Shown: positions 3,400 to 27,013 of the stretch, one piece after another
Layout of the letters: the number at the start of each line of letters is the position of its first letter
How positions within the stretch are numbered: the stretch's first letter is position 1
DNA from: Acidobacteriota bacterium
GTDB lineage: Bacteria; Acidobacteriota; UBA6911; RPQK01; JAJDTT01
Direction of reading: 5' to 3'
Assembly (NCBI GenBank): GCA_965217775.1
Contig: CBDCJH010000002.1
Coordinates: forward strand, 2,848,001-2,912,000
Length of the DNA: 64,000 nucleotides
Made by a program: the position numbers and the translations under genes
Notes under the pieces: generated by a model
Seen by the model: only the letters and a program-made list of their open reading frames with translations
The model's database searches: none
Told to the model about the DNA's origin: nothing

Positions 3400-3407
3400 C
3401 AACGTAA

Positions 3408-3419
3408 AAAGGGACAGTC
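3408..3419 (+). repeat. AAAGGGACAGTC motif (putative RAYT-associated REP-like motif)
   Basis: Copies or variants at ~3408, 3523, 10776, 11536, 11564, 11693, 11737, 25027 and 25381 (+), and ~26775, 26885 and 26920 (-). Confidence 0.7.
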
Positions 3420-3446
3420 TGTTTTTCGGGGTCTCAGTTGCGGTCC

Positions 3447-3507
3447 GTAGGGGCTCCCCTTGTGGGTGCCCTCTTCGGTCCGTAGGGGCTCCCCTTGTGG
3501 GTGCCCT
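3447..3507 (+). repeat. Tandem pair of GTAG-type REP palindromes
   Basis: GTAGGGGCTCCCCTTGTGGGTGCCCT at 3447 and 3482 (35-bp period); relatives at 10703 and 24986-25011 (-). Confidence 0.75.
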
Positions 3508-3551
3508 CTTCGGACCTGGTAGAAAGGGAAAGTCCATTGTTCCTTCGTCCG

Positions 3552-4400
3552 TCAAACGGCGGTGTCAGGTTCCCAAAAGCCCGATTCGTGAAGATCCCGC
3601 CAGGGGATCAGCCTCCCTGCTTTGCGCTGCTGGGGTTGATCGCCCCCGTAGGCCACGAGGACCGAACATGGACGAGGCAATTGCGAAAGATGTCTGCGAA
3701 CGCGCCGGGCGCCGCGAAACAGAGTGGAGGATGGCGTCGCAGAAGCCTTGGCTTCCACCAGCGTGATATGGGACGGGTGCTCGATGATGAGATCGGCCTC
3801 GGCCCCGTTACTGTCGCGGTAAAAGAACAGACCGCCCATTTCGCCCCGGTTGGTTCGGTATTTCACGATCTCCGAGACGACCCAGGTTTCGAAGATCGGG
3901 CCCCGCAGAGGATGCGCGCGGAGTTGATGGGGGTCACGGATGCCAAGCAACCAGCAGACCAGACCCGTGTCGTAGAAGTACAGTTTCGGCATCTTCACCA
4001 GCCGCTTGCGCAAATTGGCGTGAAAAGCCGTCAGGCGGAACGTGAGAAAACTGGTCTCGAGAATGCCGAGCCAAGCCTTGGCGGTCGGTTGGGAGATGCC
4101 GCAGTCGTCTGCCAACGACGAGTAATTGACCAACTGGGCCGTACGGCCGACGCACAATTGGACGAAGCGTTGGAAGGTGGGGAGATCTCCCACGTTGCTG
4201 ATGGTCCGCACGTCCCGTTCGATATAGGTCGCAACATACGAGCGGAGCCAGTCCGCCGGGTTCAGGTCTCGATCGAATATCCGCGGATAGGCGCCGGCGA
4301 AGAGAGTCTCCCCGAGACTCTGTGGATGCCGATCGAAACGCACGATCTCATTGCGGCTCAACGGAAGCAGGTGGTGGACTGCCGTCCTTCCGGCGAGCGA
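3552..4400 (-). pseudogene. 5'-truncated AAA+ ATPase / DUF4143 family gene
   Basis: Homology begins at SLAGRTAVHHLLPLS; contains TYIERDV, KRLVKMPKLYFYDTGL, GPIFETWV, FFYRDSNGAEADL and VEAK; no Walker A or B N-terminus. Confidence 0.75.
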
Positions 4401-4401
4401 T

Positions 4402-4434
4402 AGGATAATTCAAAATCACATATTGAATTATCCT
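4402..4434. promoter_or_regulatory. Perfect AT-rich inverted repeat, putative operator
   Basis: AGGATAATTCAA-N9-TTGAATTATCCT directly upstream of the truncated ATPase. Confidence 0.5.
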
Positions 4435-4530
4435 GATTTTACGCCCCTTCCATTTCCTGTGCCCGCGAGATCGTGAATTGCAGGGACGATGTTTGGCCAG
4501 CGGCCGCCACGGCAGCACGGATGTGACAGA

Positions 4531-6939
4531 TCAGAAGAACCGGAGGATGTAGGTCACTCTTACGCCGCGGCCGATTTCGGGGGCCAGGTCCTTGATGAAG
4601 GAGGAGTGGTTGCGGTAAAGCCGGTCGCCCAGGTTGAAGAGGTTCACCGCGAATTGGTGCGCCACGTGTTGCTGGGCGTAGGTGTAGGAGGCCTTCAGAT
4701 TTACGACGCCGTATCCGGGAGTCCGCGTCTCGCCGGTGAAGGTCTGATTTTGCTCGCCGGCCACGATCAGCTCGGGATTGATTCGCAATCCTCCGAGGTT
4801 GAAGTCCAGCCCGATCTTGCCCCTCAGGGGCGGGATTCTGGGCAAGGGGGTTCCGGTGTTCGTGTCTTGAGCGTCGACCCTATCCAAACCGAGATCGAGC
4901 CAGAGCACCGGGTTCAATCGGAAACCGAACGCCGCTTCCGCTCCCACGTAGCGGGCATCTCGCTGGGTGAACTCGATGACTTGGAGGCCGTCCTCCTCTT
5001 CTCCCGGTGCGAAGGGGAAGATGAAGTTCTGGAACCCGTAGTAGAAGAAGCTCAGGCTGCCATGGACCTGGTCATCCTCGTGCCGCAGCGACAGTTCGAT
5101 GCCGTCGCCGGTCTCGGCGTCCAGGAACGGATCGCCGATCTCGAACGCGAGGTTCCCGGCGTGCGGGCCGAAATTGTAGAGCTCTTCCAGGGACGGAGCC
5201 CGGTACGAATGGGAGTAGTTCACCACGAATGCCCCGTCCTGCCAGGTGTCGGCATGGATGCCGACTGAGGCGGAAGCACCGGTGAACGTCCGCTCGACGG
5301 CGTCGGCGACCTCCTCGTCGTGGTCCTCCTCCATCTCGTGCTCTGCTTCCTCGTCGTGGTGCTCCTCTTCTTCTTCGTGGCCGTGGCCGGCACTGCGTTC
5401 GGCGAAGCCCGGATGGTAGCGCTGGGTCTCCAGACGCCCGCCGAACTGGAGCTTGAAGGTCTCGAAATCCAGGACCTGCAGGGCGAAAAGGGCGAATCCG
5501 TTCTGCGTGACCGGCGGTGACAGCGCTTCCTCTCCCGTGGCCGAATAGTCTCTGGCCAGGCCCCAGAAACCGAAGCTTCCACTCAAAGGCCCTGACTCCC
5601 GCTGCTCGAAGACCCCACGGTAGGTGAACTGGGTGTTGTCGAACTCGGTGCCCACGATCCGGTCACCATCCTCCAGGAACTCGATCTCGTCGTGCGACCA
5701 GTCGGTGTAGGCCAGTTTCAGAGCGAAATGGTCGAGGGCGCCGCCCAGGTCCTTCAGTCCCCAGTTGAAGCGGTAGCTCAGGCGCTGGGCGTCGACCTGG
5801 ATGCGATCGATCTCCTCTTCCTCCTCGTGCCCGTGCTCGTCTTCTTCGTCGTGATGCTCACCCTCCTCTTCGTCGTGGTGCTCTTCCTCTTCCCCGTGGT
5901 GGCCGTGGAACTCCTGGACGAAGGGGACGCCGTAAATCCCGTCGTCGTACTTGGCTTCCACGCTGAAGAACATCTTCTTGCCGTAGAACCCGAAGCCGCC
6001 GCCGCCGTTGGCAATCTTGGACCGGGAGTTGTAGATGGCGCCCTGCCCCGGGGCCGTGTAGTCGCCGGTGCGCATTCCCCCGCCCTGTCCCCAGAACAGC
6101 CAGTCGCCGGCCCCGAGCTCGAAGCCGGCGTTGACTCCGCCCAGGGAGTTGTTCGTGCCCGCGGAGCCGGAGATGAAGCCGCGCACCCCTTCGTGCGGGT
6201 GATGGTGCACCTGGTGATGACGGCTGATGGCGTTGACCGTGCCCCCCATGGAGCTTCCGCTGTAGAGCAGCGTCGCCGGACCCTTGACGACCTCCAGCCG
6301 CTCCAGTTGCGCCGGGTTGATCAATTCCCCGTGGTCGCCGGACTGGGAGGACAGGGATCCGGACCGGATCCCGTCCTCCATGATCAGGACGCGGTCGCCG
6401 TCGAAACCGCGGATGATGGGCCGCGCCGGACCCGGCCCGAAACCGCGTTTGGCGATACCGCTGCCCACCTTGTGGTCCAGCAACTCGCCGATGGTGACAT
6501 CCGCCGACTCGGCCATCTGGTATGGCCCCAACGACTCGACACTCTGGAAGGACTCGAAGACGGTCTCGTGCTCGTCACTTGCCGTCACCGTGACTTCGTA
6601 TCGCCTGGACAACAGCTCCAGGAAGATGTTCGCTTCTGCCGCCGCTCCAGGGTCGACGTTCACCATGGTGGTGACTTCGGTGAACAGGCTGTCCAGATGG
6701 GTGATCAGACGGTAGGTCCCTGCAGGAATGCCATCGAACTCGTAGTTTCCATCGTCGCCGGTGACGGTGCTCCGATCCAGCTCCTCAATGGACACGCTGG
6801 CGTGGTGCAGAGGTTGACCGGTCTCCTTCAGAGTGACCTTGCCCCTCAGTGAGCCGTTCGATTGGGCGACTACCGCCGGCTGGAACATCCACGGCAGCAG
6901 GACGACCCAGACCGCCAGAAACCTGTGACCAATGCGCAT
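4531..6939 (-). CDS. TonB-dependent receptor with His/Glu-rich loops (ZnuD-like, probable zinc/metal uptake)
   Basis: Signal peptide, carboxypeptidase-like N-domain, plug motifs RPIIRGFDGDR and ERLEVVKGPATLLY, two His/Glu tracts, C-terminal RFF; GGAGG RBS before ATG 6939. Confidence 0.9.
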   Translation of the reverse strand: MRIGHRFLAVWVVLLPWMFQPAVVAQSNGSLRGKVTLKETGQPLHHASVSIEELDRSTVTGDDGNYEFDGIPAGTYRLITHLDSLFTEVTTMVNVDPGAAAEANIFLELLSRRYEVTVTASDEHETVFESFQSVESLGPYQMAESADVTIGELLDHKVGSGIAKRGFGPGPARPIIRGFDGDRVLIMEDGIRSGSLSSQSGDHGELINPAQLERLEVVKGPATLLYSGSSMGGTVNAISRHHQVHHHPHEGVRGFISGSAGTNNSLGGVNAGFELGAGDWLFWGQGGGMRTGDYTAPGQGAIYNSRSKIANGGGGFGFYGKKMFFSVEAKYDDGIYGVPFVQEFHGHHGEEEEHHDEEEGEHHDEEDEHGHEEEEEIDRIQVDAQRLSYRFNWGLKDLGGALDHFALKLAYTDWSHDEIEFLEDGDRIVGTEFDNTQFTYRGVFEQRESGPLSGSFGFWGLARDYSATGEEALSPPVTQNGFALFALQVLDFETFKLQFGGRLETQRYHPGFAERSAGHGHEEEEEHHDEEAEHEMEEDHDEEVADAVERTFTGASASVGIHADTWQDGAFVVNYSHSYRAPSLEELYNFGPHAGNLAFEIGDPFLDAETGDGIELSLRHEDDQVHGSLSFFYYGFQNFIFPFAPGEEEDGLQVIEFTQRDARYVGAEAAFGFRLNPVLWLDLGLDRVDAQDTNTGTPLPRIPPLRGKIGLDFNLGGLRINPELIVAGEQNQTFTGETRTPGYGVVNLKASYTYAQQHVAHQFAVNLFNLGDRLYRNHSSFIKDLAPEIGRGVRVTYILRFF

Positions 6940-7105
6940 GCAAACCTCCCTGCGAATTCCGTGCAATTCGGGCGGGAGTATCGGCGACGGACCAATCTGG
7001 GACTACAAAAAAACGGTGGGCGGGACCGGTCGGTCTGCAACCGGGACCCTGACTCCGGCGAACAGACGGGGAGGCGGTTCAGGTTCGAGGGCGGAATTGG
7101 GTCGC

Positions 7106-8368
7106 CTATTGTGCGGGGTTGGCGGCATGGGACCGGAGGAACGTTCCGTACCCCATGACGATACCCGTCAGTTCGGGGATCGCTTCCAGTTTCTTAAGCA
7201 GTCTCGTCCGCAGCTCCGGGTTCTGCCGGCCGCGGCCGTAGGTCGGATGGGGAAAGGTCAGGTAAAAGAGTCTCGGGTACACCAGAAGATCGACTCCGTG
7301 ACGGGCGCAGAGCGGGCCGTAGTCCTGGCTCAGAGCCTCTTCGACAGGGGGCAGGCCGAGATCGTCCTCCTGGCTTTGGAGGTAGCCCATGGTGCGCTGG
7401 ATGCGCCGCGGGTAGCGGGCTCGTTCGTTGGTGATGTGTCCGACCACGAGTTGGTCGACGATCCCGTCCGAGACCCAGCGCCGCCACTGGATTCTCATGT
7501 TGCCGAAGGGGGGACCCAGGTACTCCCCCTGTTGCACGCCCACCGCCAGCTTCTGTCCCCGGCTCTTGAGGTGATTCTTGACCTCCTTGAGGAAGGTGGT
7601 GAAGAACTCACCTCGCAGATTCCGCCACTTCTCCAGGTCGAAGCGCTCGCGCAGGATGTCCCGTCCGTAGCGGCGCTTGTACTCCTGGACCACCGGCTTG
7701 TTGAAGCCGAATTGATCGGCGTGGACGGGCGGGGGCGAATGGGAGCGAAGGCTCAGGAAGACGCCATCCAGATCGAAGCGGTCGGAGAAGGCCCGGATGA
7801 CCTTGAGCATGTATTGCCGAACCTCCGGGTAGGCGTACTCCATGACCCCCCATTGGTACTTCCGGCCATTCGCGGTGAGGCTTCGGTCGCAGGCCAGAAA
7901 CTGCGGGTTCCGGCGGGTGAAGCGGGACTGCCAGGGAAAAGGAACCGAGTCGGCGGAAAGGACGTCGGGGGGGCACCCTTCGTCCAGGACGGTCAGCCAG
8001 ACGTAGGCACGAATGCCCGCCGCCTTCATGGTGTTGACGGCGGTCTCCATGAGATCCGACTCCCAGGCCGCCCGGGTCTTCGCCATCCCCGTCCGGTGTT
8101 CTTCGTTGGCGGGCACCGCGTCGTGAAAAAGGAGGACGCGGAAGTTGTCGCCGCGGAAGAGGACCTGATCGATTCCCTTCGATTTCCAGGATCGGACGGA
8201 CTGGCGCACCTTGTCGGGAGTGTCCAGTCGAGCCGCCCCCGGGACCTTGGTCATGATGACGTCGCCCCAACTCACGATCATGACGTTCTGTTTGTCGCGA
8301 GCTTGGGCCGGGATTGGCAGGAAGAGGAAGAAGGCGATTGCTGCGATTGAGCCGGTACGCATGTTCAT
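7106..8368 (-). CDS. Secreted glycoside-hydrolase-like TIM-barrel protein (GHL10/DUF187-like)
   Basis: Signal peptide; motifs GIRAYVW, YAYPEVRQY and FDLDGVFL. Confidence 0.6.
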   Translation of the reverse strand: MNMRTGSIAAIAFFLFLPIPAQARDKQNVMIVSWGDVIMTKVPGAARLDTPDKVRQSVRSWKSKGIDQVLFRGDNFRVLLFHDAVPANEEHRTGMAKTRAAWESDLMETAVNTMKAAGIRAYVWLTVLDEGCPPDVLSADSVPFPWQSRFTRRNPQFLACDRSLTANGRKYQWGVMEYAYPEVRQYMLKVIRAFSDRFDLDGVFLSLRSHSPPPVHADQFGFNKPVVQEYKRRYGRDILRERFDLEKWRNLRGEFFTTFLKEVKNHLKSRGQKLAVGVQQGEYLGPPFGNMRIQWRRWVSDGIVDQLVVGHITNERARYPRRIQRTMGYLQSQEDDLGLPPVEEALSQDYGPLCARHGVDLLVYPRLFYLTFPHPTYGRGRQNPELRTRLLKKLEAIPELTGIVMGYGTFLRSHAANPAQ

Positions 8369-8423
8369 TCCTCCTGGAATGGATGGGAGCGGCGGCTTTC
8401 TTGCCGCCGGTTCGGGGGAGCAA

Positions 8424-8449
8424 GAGGGGGACTACAAGTCCCCCCCCTC
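8424..8449. repeat. G/C-rich palindrome family GGGGGAC-N5-7-GTCCCCC
   Basis: Copies at 8424, 15473 and 33912, each just downstream of a stop codon. Confidence 0.55.
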
Positions 8450-10474: not shown

Positions 10475-10702
10475 TTGCCCCCCTGGAGAAGACGCGTAAC
10501 GTTATTCCCTGAAGCAGGTCATCTGAACTTGTCGAGGTTACGCCGACGCGGATCGACCGACCAGCAGCCAGCGTTTTCGATTCGATATCTGGCCGCAGGC
10601 TCGGCGGACATTCGATCGAATGCTAGAACCCTACCACGGCCAGGATTCCTGTCAAACGGCGGTTTCCGGCTCCCAATACCGGCTCGGTCACTGGCAAGGC
10701 AC

Positions 10703-10790
10703 GTAGGGGCGCCCCTTGTGTGTTTGCCCTCTTCGGTCCAAAGCGGAGCAAGGCGGGACCAGACGCAAGGTGTAGAAGGGGACAGTCTTT
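10703..10790 (+). repeat. GTAG REP plus GGGACAGTC composite repeat
   Basis: GTAGGGGCGCCCCTTGTGTG...CTCTTCGGTCC followed by GTAGAAGGGGACAGTC, like 3447-3535. Confidence 0.65.
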
Positions 10791-10835
10791 TTTTCTTAGC
10801 TGCGCTCTGGTTCACTTTCTCTATTGTGGCTCGAC

Positions 10836-11255
10836 TCACTCCAGGAATGGATTCGTGATCACGACGCCTGAAATCTGCTGTCCATGCTGAAGATCTTCGC
10901 TGTAGAGGGTTCTGCAGCCCGATTCGATCGCGGCCGCAACGATCAGGCTATCGTAGAAGCCGAGCCGATAGCGAACTTTCAGGTCGAGGGTATTCTGGTA
11001 AAGCGCCTGGGTCGGGAAGACCCGACAAAGAGGCATCAAGATTCCGTTCAATAGCTGTCGAGCCGTCTCCGGTGGCACCTTGAGCTTACCCGTCATGACA
11101 TTGAGGGTTTCCTGGACGACCTGGAAACTGATGCAACCGGTTTGGCGCTCCAAGGCCCGTTGAACCAAACGCTCTGCTCGTTCCCGCTTGCTGTCGTCGG
11201 TCTCATCGAACAAGTAAACGAAGACGTTGGTGTCGAGGAAGCTTTCAACGCTCAT
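10836..11255 (-). CDS. vapC: PIN-domain toxin (VapC family)
   Basis: FLDTNVFVY, QVVQE, FYDSLIVAAA and LYSEDLQHG motifs. Confidence 0.9.
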   Translation of the reverse strand: MSVESFLDTNVFVYLFDETDDSKRERAERLVQRALERQTGCISFQVVQETLNVMTGKLKVPPETARQLLNGILMPLCRVFPTQALYQNTLDLKVRYRLGFYDSLIVAAAIESGCRTLYSEDLQHGQQISGVVITNPFLE

Positions 11256-11469
11256 TCATTTGATCCCGAGTGAACTTGCGTCCTCCGGTGAATATGCGGC
11301 CTTGCAGTTCGCGGATCACTCTCATGGCCTCGGCAGCCTGCTGCTCGCGTCGAACGTAGTTTTCGAGCCAGACTCGAAATTGCTCGTTCAACGTCGTGTG
11401 CTCCGCAGCAGCACGCCAGCGCGCCGCTTCAATCAGATTCTCGTCGGCACTCAACGTAATGTTTTTCAT
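11245..11469 (-). CDS. Antitoxin (RHH / DUF6364-like)
   Basis: MKNITLSADENLIEAAR...KFTRDQMNER; overlaps the toxin start by 11 nt. Confidence 0.8.
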   Translation of the reverse strand: MKNITLSADENLIEAARWRAAAEHTTLNEQFRVWLENYVRREQQAAEAMRVIRELQGRIFTGGRKFTRDQMNER

Positions 11470-11496
11470 CTATCAGATCTCTACTTTCATGGGGAA

Positions 11497-11519
11497 GTGT
11501 ACACTGTTTCAGTGTACAC
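11497..11519. promoter_or_regulatory. Palindromic operator of the TA module
   Basis: GTGTACACTG-TTT-CAGTGTACAC, 28 bp upstream of the antitoxin start. Confidence 0.65.
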
Positions 11520-11531
11520 GATCCTAGTGTG

Positions 11532-11587
11532 ATAGAAAGGGACAGTCCATTGTTCCGTCATAGAAAGGGACAGTCCATTGTTCCGTC
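11532..11587 (+). repeat. 28-bp perfect tandem duplication carrying the AAAGGGACAGTC motif
   Basis: ATAGAAAGGGACAGTCCATTGTTCCGTC x2. Confidence 0.8.
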
Positions 11588-11592
11588 GTCCG

Positions 11593-11683
11593 TCACCCGA
11601 CGGTGTCCGGTTCCCAAAAGCCCGCTTCGTGAAGATCCCGGCAGGGGATCAGGCTCCCTTCTGTCCGCTGCTGGGGTTGATCG
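11593..11683 (-). pseudogene. 3' remnant of a second DUF4143 ATPase copy
   Basis: DQPQQRTEGSLIPCRDLHEAGFWEPDTVG matches the C-terminus of 3552..4400. Confidence 0.75.
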
Positions 11684-11849
11684 TCAACGTAAAAAGGGAC
11701 AGTCTTTTCAGTGCAGTAGAAAGGGAAGGGCAGTAGAAAGGGACAGTCTGTTTTTCGGGGTCTCACTCCCACTACCTCTGCCCGCGAGCTCGTGAATGAC
11801 ACGGACGACGTACGGCCAGAGGGCGCGGCGCCGGAGTGGCAGGGACGGG

Positions 11850-14332
11850 CTAGAAGAACCGCATGATGTAGGTCACCCGCACGCCGCGGCCGATCTCCGG
11901 CGCCAGGTCCTTGATGAAGGAGGAGTGGTTGCGGTAGAGGCGATCGCCCAGGTTGAAGACGTTCACCGCGACCTGATGCGCCACATGCTGCTGGGCGTAG
12001 GTATAGGAGGCCTTCAGATTCACGACGCCATAGCCGGGGGTCCGGGTCTCGCCGGTGAAGGTCTGGTTCTGCTCGCTGGCCAGAATCAACTCCGGGTTGA
12101 TCCGCAACGCGCCGTAGTTGAGATCCAAACCGATCTTGCCCCGCAACGGCGGGATTCTGGGCAGCGGCGTGCCGGTGTCGGTGTCCTGGGCGTCGACCAG
12201 GTCCAGGCCCAGATCGAGCCAGAGGGCGAGTTCAGGCGGATGTCGAGGCCCGCCTCCGCCCCCACGTAGCGGGCATTCCGCTGGGTGAACTCGATCACCG
12301 TCAGTCCACTCTGCTGCTCGCCCGGGGCGTAGGGGAAGATGAAGTTCCGGAATCCGTAGTAGAAGAAATTCACGCTGCCCTGCACCGGTTCGTCTTCATG
12401 ACGCAATGACAGCTCGATCCCGTCTCCGGTCTCCGCCAGCAGGGACGGGTTGCCGACCTCGAAGGCGAGATTCCCGGCGTGCGGCCCGAAATTGTAGAGC
12501 TCCTCCAGGGAAGGGGCCCGATACGAATGGGCATAGTTGGCGACGAAAGCCCCACCGTGCCAGGTCTCGGCGTGAATACCGACTGAGGCGGAGGCTCCGG
12601 TGAAGGTCCTTTCGACCGCTTCGGCGATCTCCTCGTCGTGGTCGTCCTCGTGCTCCATCTCGTGATCGTCTGCTTCGGCGTGATGGTCATCCTCGTCACC
12701 GGCGGTACCGCGCAGGCCGAAAGCCGGCCTGTAGCGTTGAGTCTCCACACGCCCGCCGAGCTGGATCTTGAAGGTATCGAAATCCAGCACCTGCAAGGCG
12801 AAAACCGCGAATGCGTTCTGGTCGACCGGGGGCGCCAGCGCTTCTTCTCCCGAGGCCGAATAGTCTCGCGCCAGTCCCCAGAATCCGAAGCGCCCACTCA
12901 ACGGTCCCGCCTCTCCTTGCTCGAAGGCTCCCCGATAGGTGAACTGGCGGTTGTCGAACTCGGTGCCCACGAGTCTCTCATCGTGCTCCAGGTACTCGAC
13001 CTCTTCTTGAAACCAGTCGGTGTAGCCCAACCTCAGCACGAAATGGTCGATGGCGCCGCCCAATTCCTTCAACCCCCAATTGAAACGGTAGGTCCGGCGT
13101 TGGGTGTCGACCTGGACGCGTTCGATCTCCTCATGACCGTGCTCGTCGTCTTCGTGGTGGTCTTCCTCATCGTGGTCCCCTTCCTCCTCATCGTGGTCAC
13201 CTTCCTCCTCGTCGTGGTCACCTTCCTCCTCGTCGTGATGTTCGTCCTCCCCCCCAAGATGAGCGTGGTAGTTCTGGACGAAGGGGACGCCGTAGGACCC
13301 GTCATCAAATTTGGTCTCTACGCTGAAGAACATCTTCTCGCCGTAGAACCCGAATCCGCCGCCGCCGTTGGTCACTCCCGAACGGGAGTTGAAGATCTTG
13401 CCCTGCCCGGGTGCTGTGTAGTCCCCGGTTCGAACGCCGCCGCCCTGACCCCAGAACAACCATTCGCCGACGCCGTACTCGACCGCGGCATTGACCCCGC
13501 CCAACGCATTGGTCGTCCCGGCCGAGCCGGAGACGAAACCTCGCACACCCTCGTGGGGGTGATGGTGAACCTGGTGATGGCGGCTGATGGCATTGACCGT
13601 CCCTCCCATGGCGCTCCCGCTGTAGAGCAACGTGGCCGGTCCCTTGACGATCTCCATTCGCTCCAGTTGGGCCGGGTTGATCAATTCCCCATGATCTCCC
13701 GACTGGGAGGCCAGGGACCCGGTCCGGATCCCGTCCTCCAGAATCAGGATCCGATCGCCGTCGAACCCCCGGATGATGGGCCGGGATGCGCCCGGTCCGA
13801 AGCCCCGCTTGGCGATTCCGGTGCCCACCTTGTGGTCCAATAACTCGCCCACCGAGACGTTCGCCGACTCGGCCAAGTCATACGGTCCCAACGATTCGAT
13901 GCTCTGAAAGGCCTCGAAAACCGTTTCGTGCCCCTCATGACCCGTCACCGTGACCTCGTACCGTCGAGGCAACAACTCCAACACGATGCCGGCCTCCGTC
14001 GTCTCCCCCGGCTCGATGGTCACGGTGATGTGGACCTCGGTGAAGAGACTGTCCAGATGGCCTATCAGATGGTAGGTCCCGGGAGGCACATCCTCGAACT
14101 CGTAGACTCCATCGTGTTCGGTGACGGTGCTGCGGTCGAGGTCCTCGATCGCCACGCTGACGTGGTGCAGGGGTTCACCCGTCTCCTTGAGCGTCACGAT
14201 ACCCTTCAGCGCACCGTGCGATTCCGCCGCAGCCATGGGTTGGAGCGCCGGTGAAAGCAAGACGATCCATAACCGAAGAAACTTGAGGCCTACGCGACTG
14301 CATCGGCCAGATTTCACGAGAACTTGCGCCAT
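11850..14332 (-). pseudogene. Second His/Glu-rich TonB-dependent receptor with a single 1-bp deletion near 12224 (pseudogene or sequencing error)
   Basis: ORF 12086..14332 is collinear with 4531..6939 up to RLNSP; the C-terminus continues in ORF 11850..12146; one extra G at GGG 12224-12226 restores NSPLWLDLG. Confidence 0.85.
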
Positions 14333-14378
14333 GATGCCCGTTTACTCACGAATAACCGAAACCGCCACTGATCGATAG

Positions 14379-14407
14379 TTGACATTGCCCTGATCACCAC
14401 AACAATA
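14379..14407 (+). promoter_or_regulatory. Possible sigma70 promoter for the CDF gene
   Basis: TTGACA at 14379 with a weak -10-like AACAAT about 16 nt downstream, in an AT-rich divergent spacer. Confidence 0.35.
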
Positions 14408-14458
14408 TTGAGTTTATTCGCCAATTTACAGCACAATTCCGTTGATTTGAATCACACG

Positions 14459-15436
14459 ATGGACACACATCATCACAATCACGGCCACCATCATCACGGA
14501 CCTGGGGAACATGACCACGATCTGCACGGCGCCAGCCGGCGCAGCCTGACCGTCGCCCTCGTCTTGACCGTCGGGTATATGGTCATCCAGCTCGTCGGCA
14601 GCATCCTCTCCGGCAGTCTGGCGCTGCTGGCAGAGGCCGCACACAAGGTGACGGACGCGGCGTCCATCGGCTTCGCCCTGGTCGCCCTCCATTTCTCGAC
14701 CCGGCCCGCCTCCGCCCAACGGACCTTCGGCTATCGCCGCCTGGAGATCCTGGCGGCCCTGGTCAACGCCCTCTCCCTCTGGCTGGTCGCCGGGTGGCTG
14801 ATCATGGAGGCATACGAACGCACCCATGATGCGCTCCATCACGTCGAAGGCGGAGTCATGCTGGCGTTCGGCGCAGTCGGCCTGCTGGTCAATCTCTCGG
14901 TGGCCTGGGTCCTCCACCGCTCGTCCAAGCACAGCGTCAACGTCGAGGGTGCCTTCCGGCACGTCATGGTCGATCTGCTGGGGACCGTCGGCGTGGTGGT
15001 CTCCGGCCTGCTGGTCTGGGCCTTCCACTGGGACCATGCGGACACGGTCGTGAGCGTGATCATCGGCGCCCTCATCCTGCTCAGCACCTGGCGTCTGATC
15101 GGAAAAGTCGTGCATGTGCTGCTTGAGGGGGTGCCCAAACACATCGACGTCTATCGGCTCTGCAGCGAGATGGAAGAGGTGCAAGGCGTCGGCCTGATCC
15201 ACGACATCCACGTCTGGAGCCTCGTCCCCGGCTACGAGATGCTCACGGCCCACGTCCTGGTCGATCCCGAGTTCGAAGACCTGGAATTCCTGCGGCGCCG
15301 CCTGCGAGAGATCGCAGCCGATGATTTCGGCATCCACCACATCACCATTCAACTGGAGTACACGGCGGACGGATGTACCGAACACCACCACGTCGACCAT
15401 CTGCACGCGTACAGCGCGGACGATAGAATCTCCTGA
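14459..15436 (+). CDS. Cation diffusion facilitator (CzcD/ZitB-like metal exporter)
   Basis: His-rich N-terminus, SGSLALLAEAAHKVTD, RTFGYRRLEILAAL, HVMVDLLG, HDIHVW and HITIQLE. Confidence 0.9.
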   Translation: MDTHHHNHGHHHHGPGEHDHDLHGASRRSLTVALVLTVGYMVIQLVGSILSGSLALLAEAAHKVTDAASIGFALVALHFSTRPASAQRTFGYRRLEILAALVNALSLWLVAGWLIMEAYERTHDALHHVEGGVMLAFGAVGLLVNLSVAWVLHRSSKHSVNVEGAFRHVMVDLLGTVGVVVSGLLVWAFHWDHADTVVSVIIGALILLSTWRLIGKVVHVLLEGVPKHIDVYRLCSEMEEVQGVGLIHDIHVWSLVPGYEMLTAHVLVDPEFEDLEFLRRRLREIAADDFGIHHITIQLEYTADGCTEHHHVDHLHAYSADDRIS

Positions 15437-18517: not shown

Positions 18518-18521
18518 GCCG

Positions 18522-19976: not shown

Positions 19977-19998
19977 GCCGGGGAAACGCCGCGCCTCG

Positions 19999-21045
19999 CT
20001 ATCGTTTGTTTCCAGCGGAATCGGTCGCGGGGGGTGGAGCGAACCGCCGCCGGAACGCGTCCATGTGGACGTAAAGAGCCGGCGAGCCTCCGGTGTGAAT
20101 GAAGACCACCTTCTGTCCCTTGCGGAACACTCCCTTGCGGATCAGGTCGATGGTCCCGGCCATGGCCTTGCCCGTGTAGACCGGGTCCAGGAGGATCCCT
20201 TCGGACCGGGCCACGAGCCCGACCGCTTCCATCATCTCCGGCGTCGGGAGGGCGTACCCCGGGCCCACGTAGTCGCCGTTGCAGTCCACCGAATCCCTGG
20301 GAAGCGGGGATTCGACGCCCAGGCGGGAGACGGTCGCCAAGGCCAGCTCGTAGACGCTTCGCTCCTGTGGTTCCCGGCCGCGGCTCACATTCATGCCGGT
20401 CACGGCCAGCGAGGACCCGGCGCCCCGGAGCCCGGCCAGGAGTCCAGATTGGGTCCCGGCGCTTCCGCTCGGAACCACCAAGTGGTCCACCTGGAGATCC
20501 TGCTGCCGGAACTGGGAGATCAACTCCAGGGCGCAGGCGGCGTATCCGGTGGCGCCGACGGCGTTGGATCCGCCCACGGGGATCAAGTAGGGGTTCCGTC
20601 CCCGCGCCCGGCACTCGCGAGCCAACTGCTCCATCGCGGGCGCCGCCTGTCCCCGCCCGGAGACGATCCGCAGGCTGTCCGCCCCCAGCAACTGGTAGAG
20701 GAAATTGTTGCCGCCGGCCTCGGGGTCGAAGGCGCCGGGCGCCGGTTCCTGCAGCACCAGGTGGCACTCGAGTCCCTCCACCCGGGCCCAGGAGAGGGTC
20801 AGCCGGCAGTGGTTGGATTGAATGGCGCCACTGGTGATGAGGGTATCCGCACCCTGGGCCAGGGCCTCCCCGATGGAGAACTCCAACTTGCGAGTCTTGT
20901 TCCCTCCGCCCGCTCCCGGCAACAGGTCGTCCCGTTTGATGTAGATCTGCGGGCCACCCAGCAATCGGGACAGGCGAGGGGCCGGCTGCAGGGGAGTCGG
21001 CTCCGTGACATAGATTCTGCGGGGGAAGGAGGACAGTGATTTCAA
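19999..21045 (-). CDS. dcyD: D-cysteine desulfhydrase (PLP, ACC deaminase family)
   Basis: IKRDDL...GGNKTRKLE, GAIQSNH, GSAGT, LLDPVYTGKA, FIHTGG. Confidence 0.85.
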   Translation of the reverse strand: MKSLSSFPRRIYVTEPTPLQPAPRLSRLLGGPQIYIKRDDLLPGAGGGNKTRKLEFSIGEALAQGADTLITSGAIQSNHCRLTLSWARVEGLECHLVLQEPAPGAFDPEAGGNNFLYQLLGADSLRIVSGRGQAAPAMEQLARECRARGRNPYLIPVGGSNAVGATGYAACALELISQFRQQDLQVDHLVVPSGSAGTQSGLLAGLRGAGSSLAVTGMNVSRGREPQERSVYELALATVSRLGVESPLPRDSVDCNGDYVGPGYALPTPEMMEAVGLVARSEGILLDPVYTGKAMAGTIDLIRKGVFRKGQKVVFIHTGGSPALYVHMDAFRRRFAPPPATDSAGNKR

Positions 21046-21084
21046 GATTTACGACTCCGGAGTCTGATTCGAGATTCGGTCGGT

Positions 21085-22515
21085 TCAGGCAAACAGCTCT
21101 TGGATCGGTTGTCCCCGGCCGTCCTTGGTGACGAAGAAGGGCCGCTTCTCGACCTCGTAAGCCTGATCCGGAGGAATGCCCAAGGCGGCATAGAGGGTGG
21201 CGTGGAGGTCCTCGATGGAGACCGGGTTTTCCACCACCCGGCAGGGGCGCTCGTCGTCGGTCCGGCCGTAGAGGAAGCCGGACTTGAATCCGCCCCCGAA
21301 AATCAGAACCGATGAGGCTTCGGTGAAGTGCCGGTGCATGCCGTAGTGGCGCGGCTCGGTCATCCGGTCCGGGACCTTGATCTGCTGCCTCACGCCCAGG
21401 TCCGGCTTGCCTTCGATGAGGGCGTCCCGGCCGAACTCGCTGGCCACGACCACGACCGTCCGTTCCAGGAGACCCCGTTCCTCCAGGTCCAGGACCAGTT
21501 GGGCGATGGGGGCGTCGATGGTCCGCTTGAGGTGGATCATCCGCTCGTGGCCGTTCTCGTGAGTGTCGAAGTAGCGAAAAGGGATGTACCCGGTGGTGAC
21601 CTCCAAGAAGCGGGCGCCCGCCTCGACGAGCCGGCGGGCCAGAAGGCAACCCTGACCGAAGCGGCCCGTGCCGTACCTTTGATGACTCTCCTCGGGCTCC
21701 TGGGACAGATCGAAGGCTGCGGCCGCGGGAGAATCCACGAGGCGGTGGGCCTTGTCCAGATAGCGGAGCAACGACTTCTGCTGATAGCTCGTGCCCTCTT
21801 GAAGAACCGGGCTCTCGGCCACCAGGCGGCGGTAGGCGCGGTAGCGCCGTGCGGCGCGGGCCCGGTTCACGCCCTGGGGCGGCCGCATGGCCCCGGCCGC
21901 AGTGGCGGGATCGGGGATCAGCATGGGACCGTACTCGGCGCCCAGGAACCCGGCCGTGTGGAAGGCCTTGAGAGAGTCGCTCTCCGCCCCGATCTCCATG
22001 TCCTGGCCGATGTCCACGAAGGCGGGCACCTCCGGACGCCGTGGACCCAGCGTGCGAGCCACCACCGAACCCAGGTGGGGAGCCGCCACCGAGAGGGGCG
22101 GCGCATAACCGGTGTGCCAGTGATACTGGTGGCGGGAGTGGAGAATGAACCCCAAGTCTCCCAGACGGTGACTGCGGATCAGGGTGGCCCGGTCCATCAC
22201 CTGGGCCAAGCGGTCCAGGCCGCTGGAGAGTTGGATGCCGTCCACCACCGTGTCGATGGCGGGAAAGGTGCTCAATACCCGTTTCGACTCGACACCGGGT
22301 TCGAACGGAGTGTAGCGCTTGGGATCGAAGGTTTCGGTCTGGGCCATGCCTCCGGCCATCCAGAGCAGAATCATGGCGTCGGCCCGGGCCGGCAGCGATG
22401 GAGCCGCCAAAAGCCGGGGCTCGCGACTTCTCCAGGCCGCCAATGCGGCGGCGGAGAGCTGGAGAAATCGTCTGCGATCGAAGCCTTCCGAGGGGTCTGG
22501 ACTCAAGTTCCGCAC
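21085..22515 (-). CDS. DUF1501 family protein (Tat-exported)
   Basis: DRRRFL Tat motif, LWMAGGMAQTETFDPK, SEFGR. Confidence 0.85.
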   Translation of the reverse strand: MRNLSPDPSEGFDRRRFLQLSAAALAAWRSREPRLLAAPSLPARADAMILLWMAGGMAQTETFDPKRYTPFEPGVESKRVLSTFPAIDTVVDGIQLSSGLDRLAQVMDRATLIRSHRLGDLGFILHSRHQYHWHTGYAPPLSVAAPHLGSVVARTLGPRRPEVPAFVDIGQDMEIGAESDSLKAFHTAGFLGAEYGPMLIPDPATAAGAMRPPQGVNRARAARRYRAYRRLVAESPVLQEGTSYQQKSLLRYLDKAHRLVDSPAAAAFDLSQEPEESHQRYGTGRFGQGCLLARRLVEAGARFLEVTTGYIPFRYFDTHENGHERMIHLKRTIDAPIAQLVLDLEERGLLERTVVVVASEFGRDALIEGKPDLGVRQQIKVPDRMTEPRHYGMHRHFTEASSVLIFGGGFKSGFLYGRTDDERPCRVVENPVSIEDLHATLYAALGIPPDQAYEVEKRPFFVTKDGRGQPIQELFA

Positions 22516-22639
22516 GGTGGGTTCTCCGCCTTGCCGGACAGATCGGGATCGCCGTTCATGTTACGCATTCCCCCTGCGGGCTCGCAAGCTCGCGGGTTGC
22601 GTCGACGAACTGCCCCAAATCAGGGTCACCGGATGCGGG

Positions 22640-22882
22640 CTAGCTTGCTGGCTTGAGTGTTCCCTCTTCGTGATCGTGGCGATGGTCATGGCGACCCTGG
22701 TGAAACACGGCGTGGAGCAGCGTACCGCCGACAAAGGCCTGGTAGAGCTCGAGCCCGTCCCCATCGGCAAAGAGCCGGGCACCGATGGCGTACCCGGCGA
22801 TCGTAGCGGCCAGAATCGTCCCGATGCCGATCGCCGCGACTCGGAAGCCGTGGCGGGGCCGCAAGATCCACCAGATCATCAA
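22640..22882 (-). pseudogene. C-terminal fragment of a ZIP-like membrane protein
   Basis: Two TM segments, YQAFVGGTLLHAVFH and a His-rich tail; too short for a full transporter. Confidence 0.45.
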
Positions 22883-22949
22883 GCCGACCGGAATTCGGCG
22901 GCATCAGCAAATTCCTGCCAACACAGTCGAGACACGGCACGGTCCCGGA

Positions 22950-23939
22950 TTACCCGGGGGATACCAGGCCAGGGTCAACGGAGCGGCCGCCGACATGGTG
23001 ATCCTCATCGGGACAGCCTTCCGCCGTGTCTTCCAACTGAATCGTGACGTGCCGGATGCCGAAGTCACGGGAGGCGATCTCGCGAAGTTGGTTCCGAATG
23101 AAGACCATGTCTTCATTCCCGGGATCTACCAGAACGTGAGCCGTGAGGACATCGTAGTCGGAGGCGAGGCTCCAAACATGAATATCGTGAATCGAGCCGA
23201 CGCCCGGCACATCTTCCATTTGCCTGCACAGGCGACGAATGTCGATGTGTTGCGGCACCCCTTCAAGGAGGACATGGATCACCTTACCCAGCAGGCGCCA
23301 TGAACTCACCAGAATGAGGATACCGATGATCACGCTCACGATGGGGTCCGCGATTTTCCAATTGAAACCCCAAACCAGAATGCCCGATACGACCACACCG
23401 ATGGACCCGAGAAGATCGGCCATGACGTGCTGGTAGGCGCCTTCGACGTTCACGCTGTGCCCAGCCGACCGGTGCAGGATCCGGGCCGCGATGAGGTTGA
23501 CGACGAGGCCAATGGAGCCGACGGTCAGCATCACCTCTCCCTTGACGTCGGGCAGAACCGTGAAGCGGTGGTAGGCTTCAAAAACGACCCACCCGGCAAT
23601 CAGCCAGAGCGTGACTGCGTTCAGCAGGGCCGCCAGGATCTCGAGGCGGCGATAACCAAAGGTACGCCGTGCGGACGCCGGCCGATTTGAAAAGTGAAGG
23701 GCGACCAGAGCGAGGCCGATCGACGCCGCGTCGGTCAACATGTGCCCGGCGTCCGCCATGAGCGCCAGACTTCCGGAGAGGATGCCGCCGATGATCTCGG
23801 CGAACATAAAGCCGACGATCAGCACCAGCGCAGAGGTCAGATTGCGCCGGCTGGACCCGCGAAGGTCATGCGAACATCCGTCCAGGCCAGGGTCTTGGTC
23901 TTGGCAACGGCCATGGTGCTGGTGACGGCCTTTGGACAT
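22950..23939 (-). CDS. Second cation diffusion facilitator (CzcD/ZitB-like)
   Basis: SGSLALMADAGHMLTD, RTFGYRRLEILAAL, HVMADLLG, HDIHVW; paralogue of 14459..15436. Confidence 0.9.
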   Translation of the reverse strand: MSKGRHQHHGRCQDQDPGLDGCSHDLRGSSRRNLTSALVLIVGFMFAEIIGGILSGSLALMADAGHMLTDAASIGLALVALHFSNRPASARRTFGYRRLEILAALLNAVTLWLIAGWVVFEAYHRFTVLPDVKGEVMLTVGSIGLVVNLIAARILHRSAGHSVNVEGAYQHVMADLLGSIGVVVSGILVWGFNWKIADPIVSVIIGILILVSSWRLLGKVIHVLLEGVPQHIDIRRLCRQMEDVPGVGSIHDIHVWSLASDYDVLTAHVLVDPGNEDMVFIRNQLREIASRDFGIRHVTIQLEDTAEGCPDEDHHVGGRSVDPGLVSPG

Positions 23940-24115
23940 TGCTTTACTCTACAACATCAACTCGACCGGATGTCTCACCGGCAAAGTAAATCAAGGTTGA
24001 GGTATGCACTGTAAGCGCATTTTCCGCTTCAGTCCGAAATCCTCGCCTGGAACTGTTAATCTTCGAATCTCAGGGACCGTACCGGATCTACTGAGCCGGA
24101 CGGAGGAGACGCCAC

Positions 24116-24976
24116 ATGCGCAGAGTGGTCGTGATCGGGTCCAAAGGGCAGCTTGGATCCGATTTGGTGCGGGAGCTGGGCGATCCGGATCGGATCGTTC
24201 CCCTTTCCCATCAGGATCTGGAGATCTGCGACCACGCCAACACGCGAGAGGTTCTGACCGGGCTCCGGCCGGACGCCGTCATCAATACGGCAGCCTATCA
24301 CCGGGTCGACGACTGCGAGGACCATGAGTCCAGAGCCTTCGAGAACAACGCGGCCGCGGTCCTGAACCTGGGCCGGATCTGCAACGACCTGGACGCGCTC
24401 CTGGTGCACGTGAGCACCGACTACGTGTTCGGCGGTGATGGTGACCGGACGTCGCCTTACACCGAGGAAGATCCCCCTTGCCCCTTGAACGTCTACGGGG
24501 CCTCCAAGCTCGCCGGCGAGAACCTGCTTCGAGAAGAGTGCCGGCGGCACCTGATCGTGAGGACCTCCGGGCTCTACGGTCTGGCCGGAGACCGCAACTT
24601 CGTGGCCGTCATGCTGAGACTGGCCGGAAGGAGCCGTCCCCTCCGGGTGGTGGACGACCAGCGCCTGCGACCGACGTATACGGCGCATCTGGCTCGCAAG
24701 ATGGTCCAGTTGTTGGCTTCGACGGCTCGGGGAACGGTGCACGTCACCAATCAGGGCGAGTGCACCTGGTACGAATTCGCCCGCCGGCTCTTCGAGTTGG
24801 CCGGCCTCACAGCAGACCTGACGCCCACCACCTCCCAGGAATTCGGAGCCAAGGCCACCCGGCCGGCGTACTCGGTCCTGGCCAACGAGGCCCTGACCCG
24901 GGCGGGCCTCGACCCCATGCCCCACTGGAGCCAGGGCTTGGCCGACTATCTGGCGGGGAAACGGAGCGGACGGTAA
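24116..24976 (+). CDS. rfbD: dTDP-4-dehydrorhamnose reductase
   Basis: GSKGQLG, STDYVF, YGASK, VDDQ..PT, RPAYSVL; GGAGG RBS. Confidence 0.9.
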   Translation: MRRVVVIGSKGQLGSDLVRELGDPDRIVPLSHQDLEICDHANTREVLTGLRPDAVINTAAYHRVDDCEDHESRAFENNAAAVLNLGRICNDLDALLVHVSTDYVFGGDGDRTSPYTEEDPPCPLNVYGASKLAGENLLREECRRHLIVRTSGLYGLAGDRNFVAVMLRLAGRSRPLRVVDDQRLRPTYTAHLARKMVQLLASTARGTVHVTNQGECTWYEFARRLFELAGLTADLTPTTSQEFGAKATRPAYSVLANEALTRAGLDPMPHWSQGLADYLAGKRSGR

Positions 24977-24985
24977 CGGCAAGGG

Positions 24986-25011
24986 AAGGCGACCACAAGC
25001 GTCGCCCCTAC
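24986..25011 (-). repeat. GTAG-type REP palindrome
   Basis: Minus strand GTAGGGGCGACGCTTGTGGTCGCCTT, just after rfbD. Confidence 0.7.
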
Positions 25012-25023
25012 CAGAATTTTCCC

Positions 25024-25374
25024 GGAAAAGGGGACAGTCTATTTTTCTGGGACGGGGGCACATGGGACGGGGGCACACACACAGGTCAGACCACAAGGGG
25101 GCACAGGTCAGACCACAAGGGTATCGGCGACTTCGGCTACCAAGACGACTCAGGTGGTCACTTAGTCACATTTCGTCGGATTCTTCCGGGAACGCGAGAT
25201 TTGCTGATTTTCTTGAGTTTCCTTCGCCTTTCTCAGTTCTGAATCGTTGGTGTCACAAAGGGTTGCGAAACGACTCCCCCGCGAGTCCGAGTCCGATTAA
25301 CCGAACCGAGGATCGTGGCCATGGCCCGAACCGCACGACACAAGAGTTCAGAAGCCGCCTTCTATCACCTCACC
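25024..25374 (+). repeat. Diverged duplicate of the RAYT upstream region and first 18 codons
   Basis: Parallels 25378-25686, including GGAAAAGGGGACAGTC, CAGGTCAGACCAC and ATGGCCCGAACCGCACGACACAAGAG. Confidence 0.8.
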
Positions 25375-25632
25375 GATGGAAAAGGGGACAGTCTATTTCT
25401 CTGGCACGGAAGGCACAGGTCAGACCACCACGGTGCCGGCTTTTTCGGCTGCAAAGACAACTGAGATCGTCGCTTGGTCAAGTTCCCTCGGTTGCTTCCG
25501 GAAACGCGAGGCTTGCCGGTTTTCTTGAGTTTCCTTCGCTGTTCTCAGTTCAGAATCGTTGTTGTCATCAGGGGTGCGAAACAGCTCCCCCGCCGAGTCC
25601 GAGTCCGATTAACCGAACCGAGGATCGTGGCC

Positions 25633-26568
25633 ATGGCCCGAACCGCACGACACAAGAGCACAGAAGCCGCCTTCTATCACCTCACCAATCGAGTCGCCGG
25701 CAATTCCGATTGGTTCCCCTTTAAAAACCACCAAGCCGGTCGCAAACTCCTGGACATGATGTCGTTCTACGTCAATGTCTACCGGTGTCGTTTGGCCGCT
25801 TTCCAGATCATGGGCAATCACTTCCACTTCGTCATCCATTTTGAGAAACCCCGCCCCCTGTCCCGCGACGAGTTGATGGACAGCGCCCACAAGCTTTATG
25901 GACAACAGGCAGAGAAGAAAACCGCCGATTGGACCGTCGCCCAGTGGGAGGCTTTCAACCAGCGTCTCTTTGACGTGTCGAAACTGATGGCGAACGTGGA
26001 CGGGTTCTATGCCCGGTGGTTCAACCGCAATTTCAAACGGCGAGGCCATCTTTGGGGTGATCGTTTCAAGAACCCGGAACTCTTGGGAAGCGAAGCCGTC
26101 CAGGACGCCATCCTCTACGTGGAACTCAACGCCGTCCGGGCCGGACTGGTCAAAAGGCCCGAGCAATGGCAGTGGGGCTCGGCCCGCTGGAGACTCACCG
26201 GCGAGGATCAAAATCTGATTCCACTGGAGGAACTGTTCCCCTCGGATCCCGGAGCGGACGTGTACAGAAGTTACCGGGCTCGCTTGTACTATCGAGGAGC
26301 CGTCCCCACCCGGGAGAACCAGGCTGCGATCCCCCGGTGGATCCTCCTTCAGGAGCAGCGACGTGGATTTACCCGTGCCGGAGCCTTTCGCCGGCGTTTG
26401 CGATTTCTGACGGACGGGTTGGCCGTCGGTCCGGCAGAGAAGGTGGCGCAACTGCTGGAGACGTATCGAAAGCAAGGTCGATATCGGCGTCGCCGACACC
26501 CCATCCCCCAACTGGGCGGAGTGCTGTTTTCCCTGCGGGAGCAGCGCTCGCACGCCTTCGTCACGTAG
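25633..26568 (+). mobile_element. REP-associated tyrosine transposase (RAYT/TnpA-REP, IS200/IS605 Y1 HUH superfamily)
   Basis: FYHLTNR, HUH motif MGNHFH, WFNRNFKRRGHLWGDRFK, catalytic-Tyr helix YVELNAVRAGLVKRPEQWQWGS. Confidence 0.9.
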
Positions 26569-26786
26569 ACTCTTCTGATCTCCGACGCGCCAGATCTCCA
26601 ACCGTCGATTCTGCCACCGTGGCACCGGACGACCCAGATCACGGAAACCACCCAATAGACTCTGGTCTTTCCCCATTTTCCTGACGGTTCAGGAGAACAG
26701 GGGAAGCAGGTTTGAACGAGGATCGTGACGAGGCGGTCCAATCCCGGCGACCCGGCCATGCAAGAGAAATCGAGACTGTCCCTTTC

Positions 26787-26869
26787 CGCTCGCACGCCTT
26801 CGTCACGTAGACTCTTCTGATCTCCGACGCGCCAGATCTCCAACCGTCGATTCTGCCACCGTGGCACCG
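26787..26869 (+). repeat. Exact 83-bp duplicate of the RAYT 3' end (26545-26627)
   Basis: CGCTCGCACGCC...GTGGCACCG is identical at both sites. Confidence 0.85.
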
Positions 26870-26873
26870 CGTA

Positions 26874-27013
26874 CGTAAAAGAGGCTGTCCCTTTCCGAAG
26901 GGGAACTTCGTAAAAGAGGCTGTCCCTTTCCGAAGGGGAACTTCAGCGAATGGTCTGGAACTCGGGGGAGAGGAAGGGGAACTTCAGCGAATGGTCTGGA
27001 ACTCGGGGGAGAG
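26874..27013 (+). repeat. Overlapping tandem duplications (35 bp x2 and 41 bp x2)
   Basis: 26874-26908 = 26909-26943; 26932-26972 = 26973-27013 (the latter includes the stop of the PSD1 gene). Confidence 0.8.

Follow-up and report, generated by a model that had tools for sequence, protein, structure and literature searches.

A multicopy TIRYT element of an Acidobacteriota genus and rearrangement junctions at its end-repeat motif

Results

Organization of the transposase element

The window analyzed here is a stretch of 64,000 nucleotides from an Acidobacteriota genome (contig CBDCJH010000002.1, positions 2,848,001 to 2,912,000). It carries a gene for a RAYT-like HUH/Y1 tyrosine transposase of the TIRYT type, which lies between inverted copies of a short motif centered on GAC-N-GTC (Table 1). 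TIRYT enzymes are HUH/Y1 transposases that act on single-stranded DNA and are relatives of the REP-associated RAYTs. The motif is the specific partner of the transposase gene. Its copies also coincide with rearrangement junctions in the genome much more often than expected by chance, and more often than those of a second hairpin repeat do. The motif points inward on both sides of the gene, as the initial annotation of the window had stated, with plus-strand matches at 25027 and 25381 and minus-strand matches at 26774–26785, 26883–26894, and 26918–26929.

Table 1 Features of the transposase locus and of the motif-associated junctions in the window
Feature	Position	Strand	Remarks
C-terminal fragment of GHL10-like gene, cut within the gene	3242–3399	−	90.5% identical to 7130–7287
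37-nt motif unit at the junction of the GHL10-like fragment	3400–3436	+	recurs at 11685–11765
Motif unit (1 mismatch) in its natural position downstream of the DUF4143 gene 3552–4361 (−)	3520–3546	+	
Motif unit downstream of vapC	10769–10797	+	orthologous units in G002, G003, and G005
PIN-toxin (VapC-like) gene and small upstream partner gene, between two co-oriented motif units	10836–11469	−	
Whole 28-nt motif unit, two tandem copies	11532–11587	+	
Remnant of DUF4143 ATPase-family gene (last ~35 codons and 3′ flank)	11561–11683	−	90% identical to 3520–3642
37-nt unit of 3400–3436 with 44 extra bases exactly between GGGAC and AGTC	11685–11765	+	
Truncated extra copy of the left end of the element: motif, 5′ leader, and 17 codons	25027–25374	+	adjoins the inner left repeat at its outer foot
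Left end-repeat unit of the full element, core GGGGACAGTC	25381–25407	+	start of homology between copies
TIRYT (RAYT-like HUH/Y1 tyrosine transposase) gene, 311 aa	25633–26568	+	Pfam Y1_Tnp, 29.1 bits (cut-off 23)
~100-bp repeat within the right part of the element	26661–26766	+	also alone at ≥15 other genome sites
Right end-repeat unit of the full element, in opposite orientation to the left unit	26763–26786	−	motif match and copy alignment
Exact 83-bp copy of 26545–26627 (last 8 codons and 59 nt)	26787–26869	+	outer foot of the right repeat
35-nt unit, two copies, motif variant GGGACAGCC in each	26874–26943	−	
~41-nt tandem duplication of the 3′ end of the neighboring PSCyt/PSD1 gene	26933–27013	+	

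In the translated protein, the HUH motif is NHFH at residues 62–65 and the tyrosine motif is YVELNA (Tyr162), and both are invariant in 10 relatives. About 75 residues lie between the HUH motif and the W motif. A Pfam scan at E-values up to 10 gives Y1_Tnp only, and no helix-turn-helix (HTH)-like C-terminal domain (Bac_DnaA_C, HTH_23, or HTH_28) is recognized. The NCBIfam model REP_Tyr_transpos scores 51 bits, under its cut-off of 80, and no relative of solved structure is found by sequence search at E-values up to 1.

The genome has 11 full-length copies of the gene, one of them with an internal stop, as well as fragments, and the copies are 74–99% identical. Eight other genomes of the genus have 2–11 matches each, and a match is found in 27 of the 41 genomes searched, a tally that counts one weak match in the unpublished genome G016. 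At one locus (L005, C2:1200001–1213000), three copies, one with an internal stop, lie within 10 kb, and the stretches between the copies contain numerous motif units as well as tandem arrays of 13 nt and 21 nt. The ~100-bp repeat makes up the right part of some TIRYT elements; in the copy at C2:5113658–5115173, it is tandemly duplicated together with the motif.

Association of the motif with the transposase gene

In the 11 copies of this genome, the homology begins at the motif on the left side, while on the right side it ends variably and is followed by reverse-strand motif units. Every own-genome copy aligned is bracketed by inward-facing motifs. The same arrangement was looked for around related transposase genes, as the initial annotation had proposed: inward-facing GGGAC[AG]G[TA][CT] occurs on both sides within 600 bp at 44 of the 56 related loci that have at least 600 bp of flank, and the remaining 12 are mostly distant relatives (39–56% identity). 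The motif core varies along with the protein, being GGGACAGAC or GGGACAGTT in relatives at 54–58% identity. The TIRYT gene is the sole gene constantly linked to the unit, and the link is firm.

The initial annotation had taken the gene for a RAYT with a motif other than GTAG. The motif is indeed the partner of the gene, but such a class has already been published: Di Nocera, De Gregorio, and Rocco (2013) described TIRtrons as RAYT-like genes located between inverted repeats that share GGGGWSAS (PMC3733652). The TIRtron ends also form a dispersed repeat family, and the group of Acidobacteria is the best defined (PMC3733652). Since GGGGACAG at 25384–25391 fits the published TIR consensus GGGG[AT][CG]A[CG] (PMC3733652; PMC6006769), the element is assigned by sequence to this known, little-studied TIRYT/TIRtron class, not to a new one, and appears in it as a multicopy family in an Acidobacteriota genus.

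Structure and distribution of the motif units

The 12-mer AAAGGGACAGTC, with up to one mismatch, has 12 matches in the window against 0.27 expected, and none of 100 shuffles reaches 12; the 13-mer carrying an extra G has 5 matches against 0.12 expected. Genome-wide, [AG]3GGGACAG[TC]C gives 179 matches, and 169 motif units are left when 10 matches of an unrelated palindrome are removed. The bare 9-mer of the motif has 255 genome matches, where about 79 are expected from base composition. Motif matches also lie on C1 at 66–68 kb and on C2 at 3.33–3.39 Mb.

The conserved span reaches from about −7 to +20 relative to GGGAC, and the similarity among units is confined to these ~27 nt, with none past the unit edges. 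The unit consists of a purine-rich arm, the core GGGGAC-A-GTC, and a pyrimidine-rich arm. An early impression of a covarying hairpin was not upheld by the pairing count described below, and the unit is regarded here as an imperfect palindrome, not as a proven hairpin. Two flavors are distinguished: the GTCAC type occurs in co-oriented arrays away from the TIRYT genes, and the GTCT type is mostly found next to these genes. The GTCAC flavor is the right end of the element in G023. When solo units are oriented by GC skew, 62 of 94 are on the leading strand (p = 0.009 by sites), but only 30 of 51 once they are collapsed to clusters, so that a strand bias is doubtful.

Within the co-oriented arrays, the units are spaced by 0.8–2.7 kb and separate toxin-antitoxin pairs, a ThsB-like TIR protein, a DruA-like protein, ordinary enzymes, and scraps of integrase and DDE transposase genes. 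This arrangement resembles integron cassette arrays, in which short co-oriented sites separate small modules, many of them toxin-antitoxin genes, and it raises the question of whether the arrays are the work of an integron-like or tyrosine recombinase that acts on the unit. However, the sites here are ~27 nt long and the modules are often gene fragments, and the enzyme linked to the unit is of the HUH/Y1 type, with no other gene constantly accompanying it. A search for an integron integrase gave a best TIGR02249 frame with two scoring stretches, of 80.6 and 58.3 bits (cut-off 265), located at none of the listed arrays. Another recombinase is therefore a very improbable explanation for the arrays.

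Short tandem duplications at motif units

Tandem duplications with periods of 7–60 were scored within 100 nt of each site, and two repeats of the genome, a ~165-bp hairpin element and a GTAG-footed REP-like repeat, served as internal comparators for the motif sites. A duplication is present at 60 of the 169 motif sites, compared with 9 of 113 sites of the GTAG-type hairpin repeat and 15 of 600 random intergenic sites. As for the comparators themselves, the ~165-bp hairpin-shaped repeat (window 1728–1894) has 248 genome hits and is abundant in relatives, with up to 99% identity. The GTAG-footed palindrome family (window 3441–3513, 10700–10745, and 24985–25010 on the minus strand) has 113 strict genome hits and forms a 35-nt tandem pair once; the Y1 genes at C2:5635604 and C2:4665981 may be its partners.

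The borders of the duplications are not spread evenly over the unit. In this genome, the end of upstream duplications falls directly behind GGGAC in 8 of 85 regions, and every other coordinate has 3 or fewer. In the other genomes (199 distinct motif sites, 203 regions), 12 downstream duplications have GTC as their exact start, at least 10 of them differing in sequence, and 6 upstream duplications end after GGGAC. In this genome as in relatives, the two sharp borders are thus placed symmetrically on either side of the central base of GAC-N-GTC. Tandem copies of the whole unit are 26–28 nt long and start at −7 in all five cases.

Copied gene fragments at motif units

Fragments of genes at the units were searched for by comparing the 500 bp on each side of a unit with the genome; matches were kept if they were 80 bp or longer and had no more than 8 copies. 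The counts refer to 108 motif sites more than 1.5 kb from a TIRYT gene and to 600 random intergenic controls. One-sided homology ends within −25 to +5 of the core at 26 motif sites and 15 controls (Fisher p = 3.5e-13), which bears out the enrichment of breakpoints on the 5′ side that the initial annotation had predicted genome-wide. The restriction to that side does not hold: one-sided homology starts within +5 to +45 at 21 motif sites and 27 controls (Fisher p = 7.8e-7). As to position, the fragment junctions lie at the feet of the unit, and it is the sharp duplication borders that lie in the core. The GTAG repeat has 5′-side breakpoints at 3 of 113 sites, which is no excess.

The fragment sources are often 5–15 kb away and 95–99% identical. 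Several of the segments between two units have been copied recently from DNA nearby. Examples are a 567-bp internal gene piece, 97.5% identical to its source 10 kb away, and a 376-bp piece, 98.4% identical to its source 5 kb away. A 926-bp local repeat, 99.7% identical, adjoins a TIRYT copy. Insertion of the 27-nt unit as a mobile piece into intact sequence was also considered. Just 3 of the 45 sites with a 5′-side breakpoint are without a one-sided break; therefore, homology to the same partner almost never resumes on the far side, and the idea was rejected.

The fragments bear on whether the unit is only a boundary marker, that is, a regulatory or terminator-like signal at module ends, so that homology stops there when modules are duplicated whole. 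The distribution of the units would suit such a role: by the rough gene calls made in this analysis, units of the A and T types lie between genes in 131 of 152 cases, 28 of the 61 A-type units found there are oriented against both flanking genes, and 55 of 76 neighboring pairs less than 4 kb apart are co-oriented. In many fragments, however, the partner runs on within a gene, at least 60 bp away from either gene end (14/108 against 1/600 on the 5′ side and 12/108 against 4/600 on the 3′ side), and the 567-bp segment is itself an internal gene piece. Rfam, with which the reading as an RNA motif was tried, gives no match across window positions 1–30000 at E-values up to 1, and the motif is tied to the transposase gene at the 44 related loci mentioned above. 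A boundary marker alone is accordingly an improbable account of the junctions.

Junctions and scars in the window

The four fragment junctions claimed in the initial annotation, at 3399, 11683, 25374, and 26787, are confirmed at these positions. The fragment ending at 3399 is derived from the C-terminal part of the GHL10-like gene at 7106–8368 (−), and the homology ends at that position. The remnant ending at 11683 corresponds to the 3′ end of the DUF4143 ATPase-family gene at 3552–4361 (−), with the homology again ending at the junction. The same sequence follows both remnants, as had been noticed, with 21 identical bases at 3400–3420 and 11685–11705. Next to the transposase gene, 25100–25374 is 86% identical to 25412–25686, covering the 5′ leader and 17 codons, and stops 6 nt short of the inner motif. 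On the opposite side, the copy at 26787–26869 is 100% identical to its source and starts 1 nt outside the reverse-strand motif. The tandem duplications reported to contain the motif at 11532 and 26874 are present as two copies each of 28 nt and 35 nt. The initial annotation further attributed to the transposase a reach of up to 22 kb. This reach is not an effect of distance, because the 169 units and 11 gene copies are spread genome-wide, and the idea was dropped.

The region is repeat-rich, and the junctions might be artefacts of assembly. A public short contig of run X14 bridges 26786/26787 over 151 nt with 0 differences, and contigs of run X13 span 24940–25050 and 25029–25212, including the outer left end, without differences; both runs are possibly from the source sample and are not independent support. 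No piece among the public short contigs listed bridges 25374/25381. Against an artefact, besides the error-free contigs, stand like structures at ≥100 sites here and in independently assembled relatives, and we regard this explanation as extremely unlikely. Another contig of run X13 (compared with window 24900–27100) contains a variant of the TIRYT gene that breaks off at 25970 and is followed by an inverted motif unit, that is, another truncated copy in the community.

The same loci in related genomes

Comparison between strains, another check suggested at the outset, shows that relatives differ at the very loci of the window. At the transposase site, the one element of G003 lacks the extra left-end copy and has ~35 bp of the 3′ end of the neighboring gene on each side, a stretch that the window has as a tandem repeat at ~26933–27013. 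In G001, the element is present at this site but inverted, and lies beside a ~60-bp target repeat. In G006, the two flanking genes are separated by an unrelated 236-bp spacer that holds no element and from which the exact inserted unit cannot be deduced. In G002, the locus is split, with a TIRYT copy at each breakpoint. The flanks in G002 are 3.5 Mb apart (C1:1615298–1619073 and C1:5089151–5093192), which represents a large rearrangement.

At the 10.7–11.8 kb locus, G001 is without the PIN-toxin module, which elsewhere lies between co-oriented units; the insertion of the module is bordered by a ~30-nt repeat of the DUF4143 gene end. G001 and G002 have a complete DUF4143 gene here, whereas that of G003 is cut at a different place than in the window. 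In G006, the N-terminal part is kept and the C-terminal part is lost, while the window retains only the C-terminal remnant. Extra pieces bounded by units are the end of a TonB-dependent receptor gene in G002 and G003 and the end of the DUF4143 gene in G002 only. Insertions at the compared loci are bordered by 30–80-bp target repeats, and the relatives carry differing truncations beside motifs at these loci.

Some of these observations are compatible with a passive fragile site, at which the quasi-palindrome stalls replication or misaligns strands, and slippage, template switching, and short-homology recombination produce the junctions without the transposase. The unit is an imperfect palindrome, most of the copied fragments have a nearby source, in line with template switching at a fork, and recombination between gene copies alone accounts for the split locus in G002. 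On the other hand, the GTAG hairpin repeat, which is more stable and abundant, has far fewer duplications than the motif and lacks the excess of 5′ breakpoints, and sharp mirror-symmetric borders in several genomes suit a site-specific nick better than slippage. These comparisons leave the passive site as a possible but doubtful explanation.

Other repeats in the window

Paralogues of a TonB-dependent receptor gene are located at 2178–3020, 4531–6939, and 12086–14236. The part at 2430–3020 is an internal-deletion derivative in which the N- and C-terminal parts are kept, 2178–2306 is a further C-terminal scrap, and the copy at 12086–14236 is without the last part of the barrel. An inverted paralogous pair, 75% identical, is formed by 14532–15381 and 23008–23854; the left arm overlaps a cation-efflux gene (14408–15436), and the right arm lies inside the gene 22950–23939.

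Discussion

Possible origin of the scars

The mirror symmetry of the duplication borders should be considered in relation to the chemistry of HUH/Y1 enzymes. Judging from the positions of the borders and fragments, we consider it somewhat probable that the TIRYT protein nicks the core of the motif and that faulty resealing or repair at the units leaves the duplications and gene-fragment scars. The nick would fall in either strand, at the central base of GAC-N-GTC or beside it, on DNA that is single-stranded or folded into a hairpin, and the enzyme would remain bound to the 5′ end. If the free 3′-OH were extended some way before resealing, the stretch 3′ of the nick would be duplicated in tandem. 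A core nick on either strand, followed by short extension and resealing, would give exactly the mirror-image borders. If the broken end were instead repaired or transferred with a nearby template, a piece of a neighboring gene would be copied at the foot of the unit, or adjacent DNA would be lost. The four junctions in the window would be such scars, and the units at 3.4 kb and 10.7–11.8 kb may have been served in trans by any of the 11 gene copies.

Such a nick-extend-reseal reaction would parallel what has been described for TnpA-REP of Escherichia coli, which in vitro cuts single-stranded REP DNA, forms a covalent intermediate, and assembles tandem (BIME) copies by strand transfer (PMC3333891). 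Strand transfer was proposed as the source of repeat variability by the authors of that work (Ton-Hoang 2012; PMC3333891).

Several observations weigh against a role of the enzyme in the scars. The large junctions are found not at the putative nick but at either foot (−3 to −25 and +16 to +44), so that a second step must be assumed. The border after GGGAC is not unique, since 8 upstream duplications in the other genomes end inside the G run (coordinate 2). The arms pair in 72.5% of cells, compared with 63% or less in slid registers, and 2 of the 7 proposed pairs exceed shuffles; because this support for base-pairing is weak, the unit may act as double-stranded DNA. The left-end duplicate at 25027–25374, with only 86% identity to the inner copy, is not a simple recent tandem copy. 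Motif sites and loci of relatives are not mutually independent. Finally, a literature search outside subscription journals found no biochemistry on any TIRYT.

Comparison with known systems

The same search returned only Di Nocera 2013 and Quentin 2018 for TIRYT, and no description of such scars for TIRYT elements. In PMC3733652, section 16 and selected passages of the abstract, results, and discussion describe neither duplication scars with a fixed border nor gene-fragment junctions at the repeats. The present element shares with TIRtrons the RAYT-like HUH/Y1 gene, the inverted non-GTAG ends with GGGGWSAS, and the dispersal of these ends, and differs in the 11 full gene copies of this genome and the 2–11 matches in each of the eight other genomes of the genus.

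Quentin et al. (2018) equate TIRYT with TnpA-REP subclass 2.1, which has the HuH motif NH[YF]H and the Y motif YIELNP, a C-terminal HTH-like domain, and a low copy number with a mean of 1.9 per genome (PMC6006769). NHFH and YVELNA are close to these motifs, whereas the copy number is higher here and no HTH tail is recognizable by Pfam. Subclass 2.3, which is embedded in 2.1, has proteins of ~325 aa with an insertion between the core halves, more than 5 copies, and moderate identity, and is reported from Chromatiales and Alteromonadales (PMC6006769). The multiple copies of moderate identity and the lack of a recognizable HTH tail recall this subclass, of which the 311-aa protein would be a tentative member from a different phylum.

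As in the REP/BIME-RAYT system of E. coli, a Y1 enzyme is flanked by inverted copies of a short, dispersed, intergenic palindrome. The flanking units here, however, have no GTAG foot, and their conserved part is the center of the unit and not a stem; moreover, the gene is multicopy and falls below the NCBIfam cut-off. With IS200/IS605 elements, the present one shares the Y1_Tnp domain, several copies per genome, and the expected action on single-stranded DNA. It differs from them in having inverted ends in place of same-strand subterminal hairpins, and the class-2 (RAYT) tyrosine motif YVELNA in place of Y---Q. The copies here are also not near-identical, and at least one is found at the same locus in another species (G003).

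Implications for genome variability

A further possibility is that the TIRYT protein and its end repeat constitute an HUH-based system of DNA capture, in which a nick at GAC-N-GTC primes copying of nearby DNA, the copy is sealed at the unit, and repeated rounds build the co-oriented arrays of toxin-antitoxin modules, defense genes, and scraps. We regard this as unlikely on the present evidence. If it were true, the system would be a single-strand-DNA counterpart of integrons or of ISCR/Helitron-type gene capture, and would shape the variable regions of these Acidobacteriota genomes.

The natural scars found in this genus predict a nick-extend-reseal reaction, with cleavage at the center of GAC-N-GTC or beside it. 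If they are due to the enzyme, the repeats would contribute greatly to local duplication, to the truncation of genes, and to the shuffling of modules in this lineage, and gene fragments beside the units are to be expected in genome annotation.

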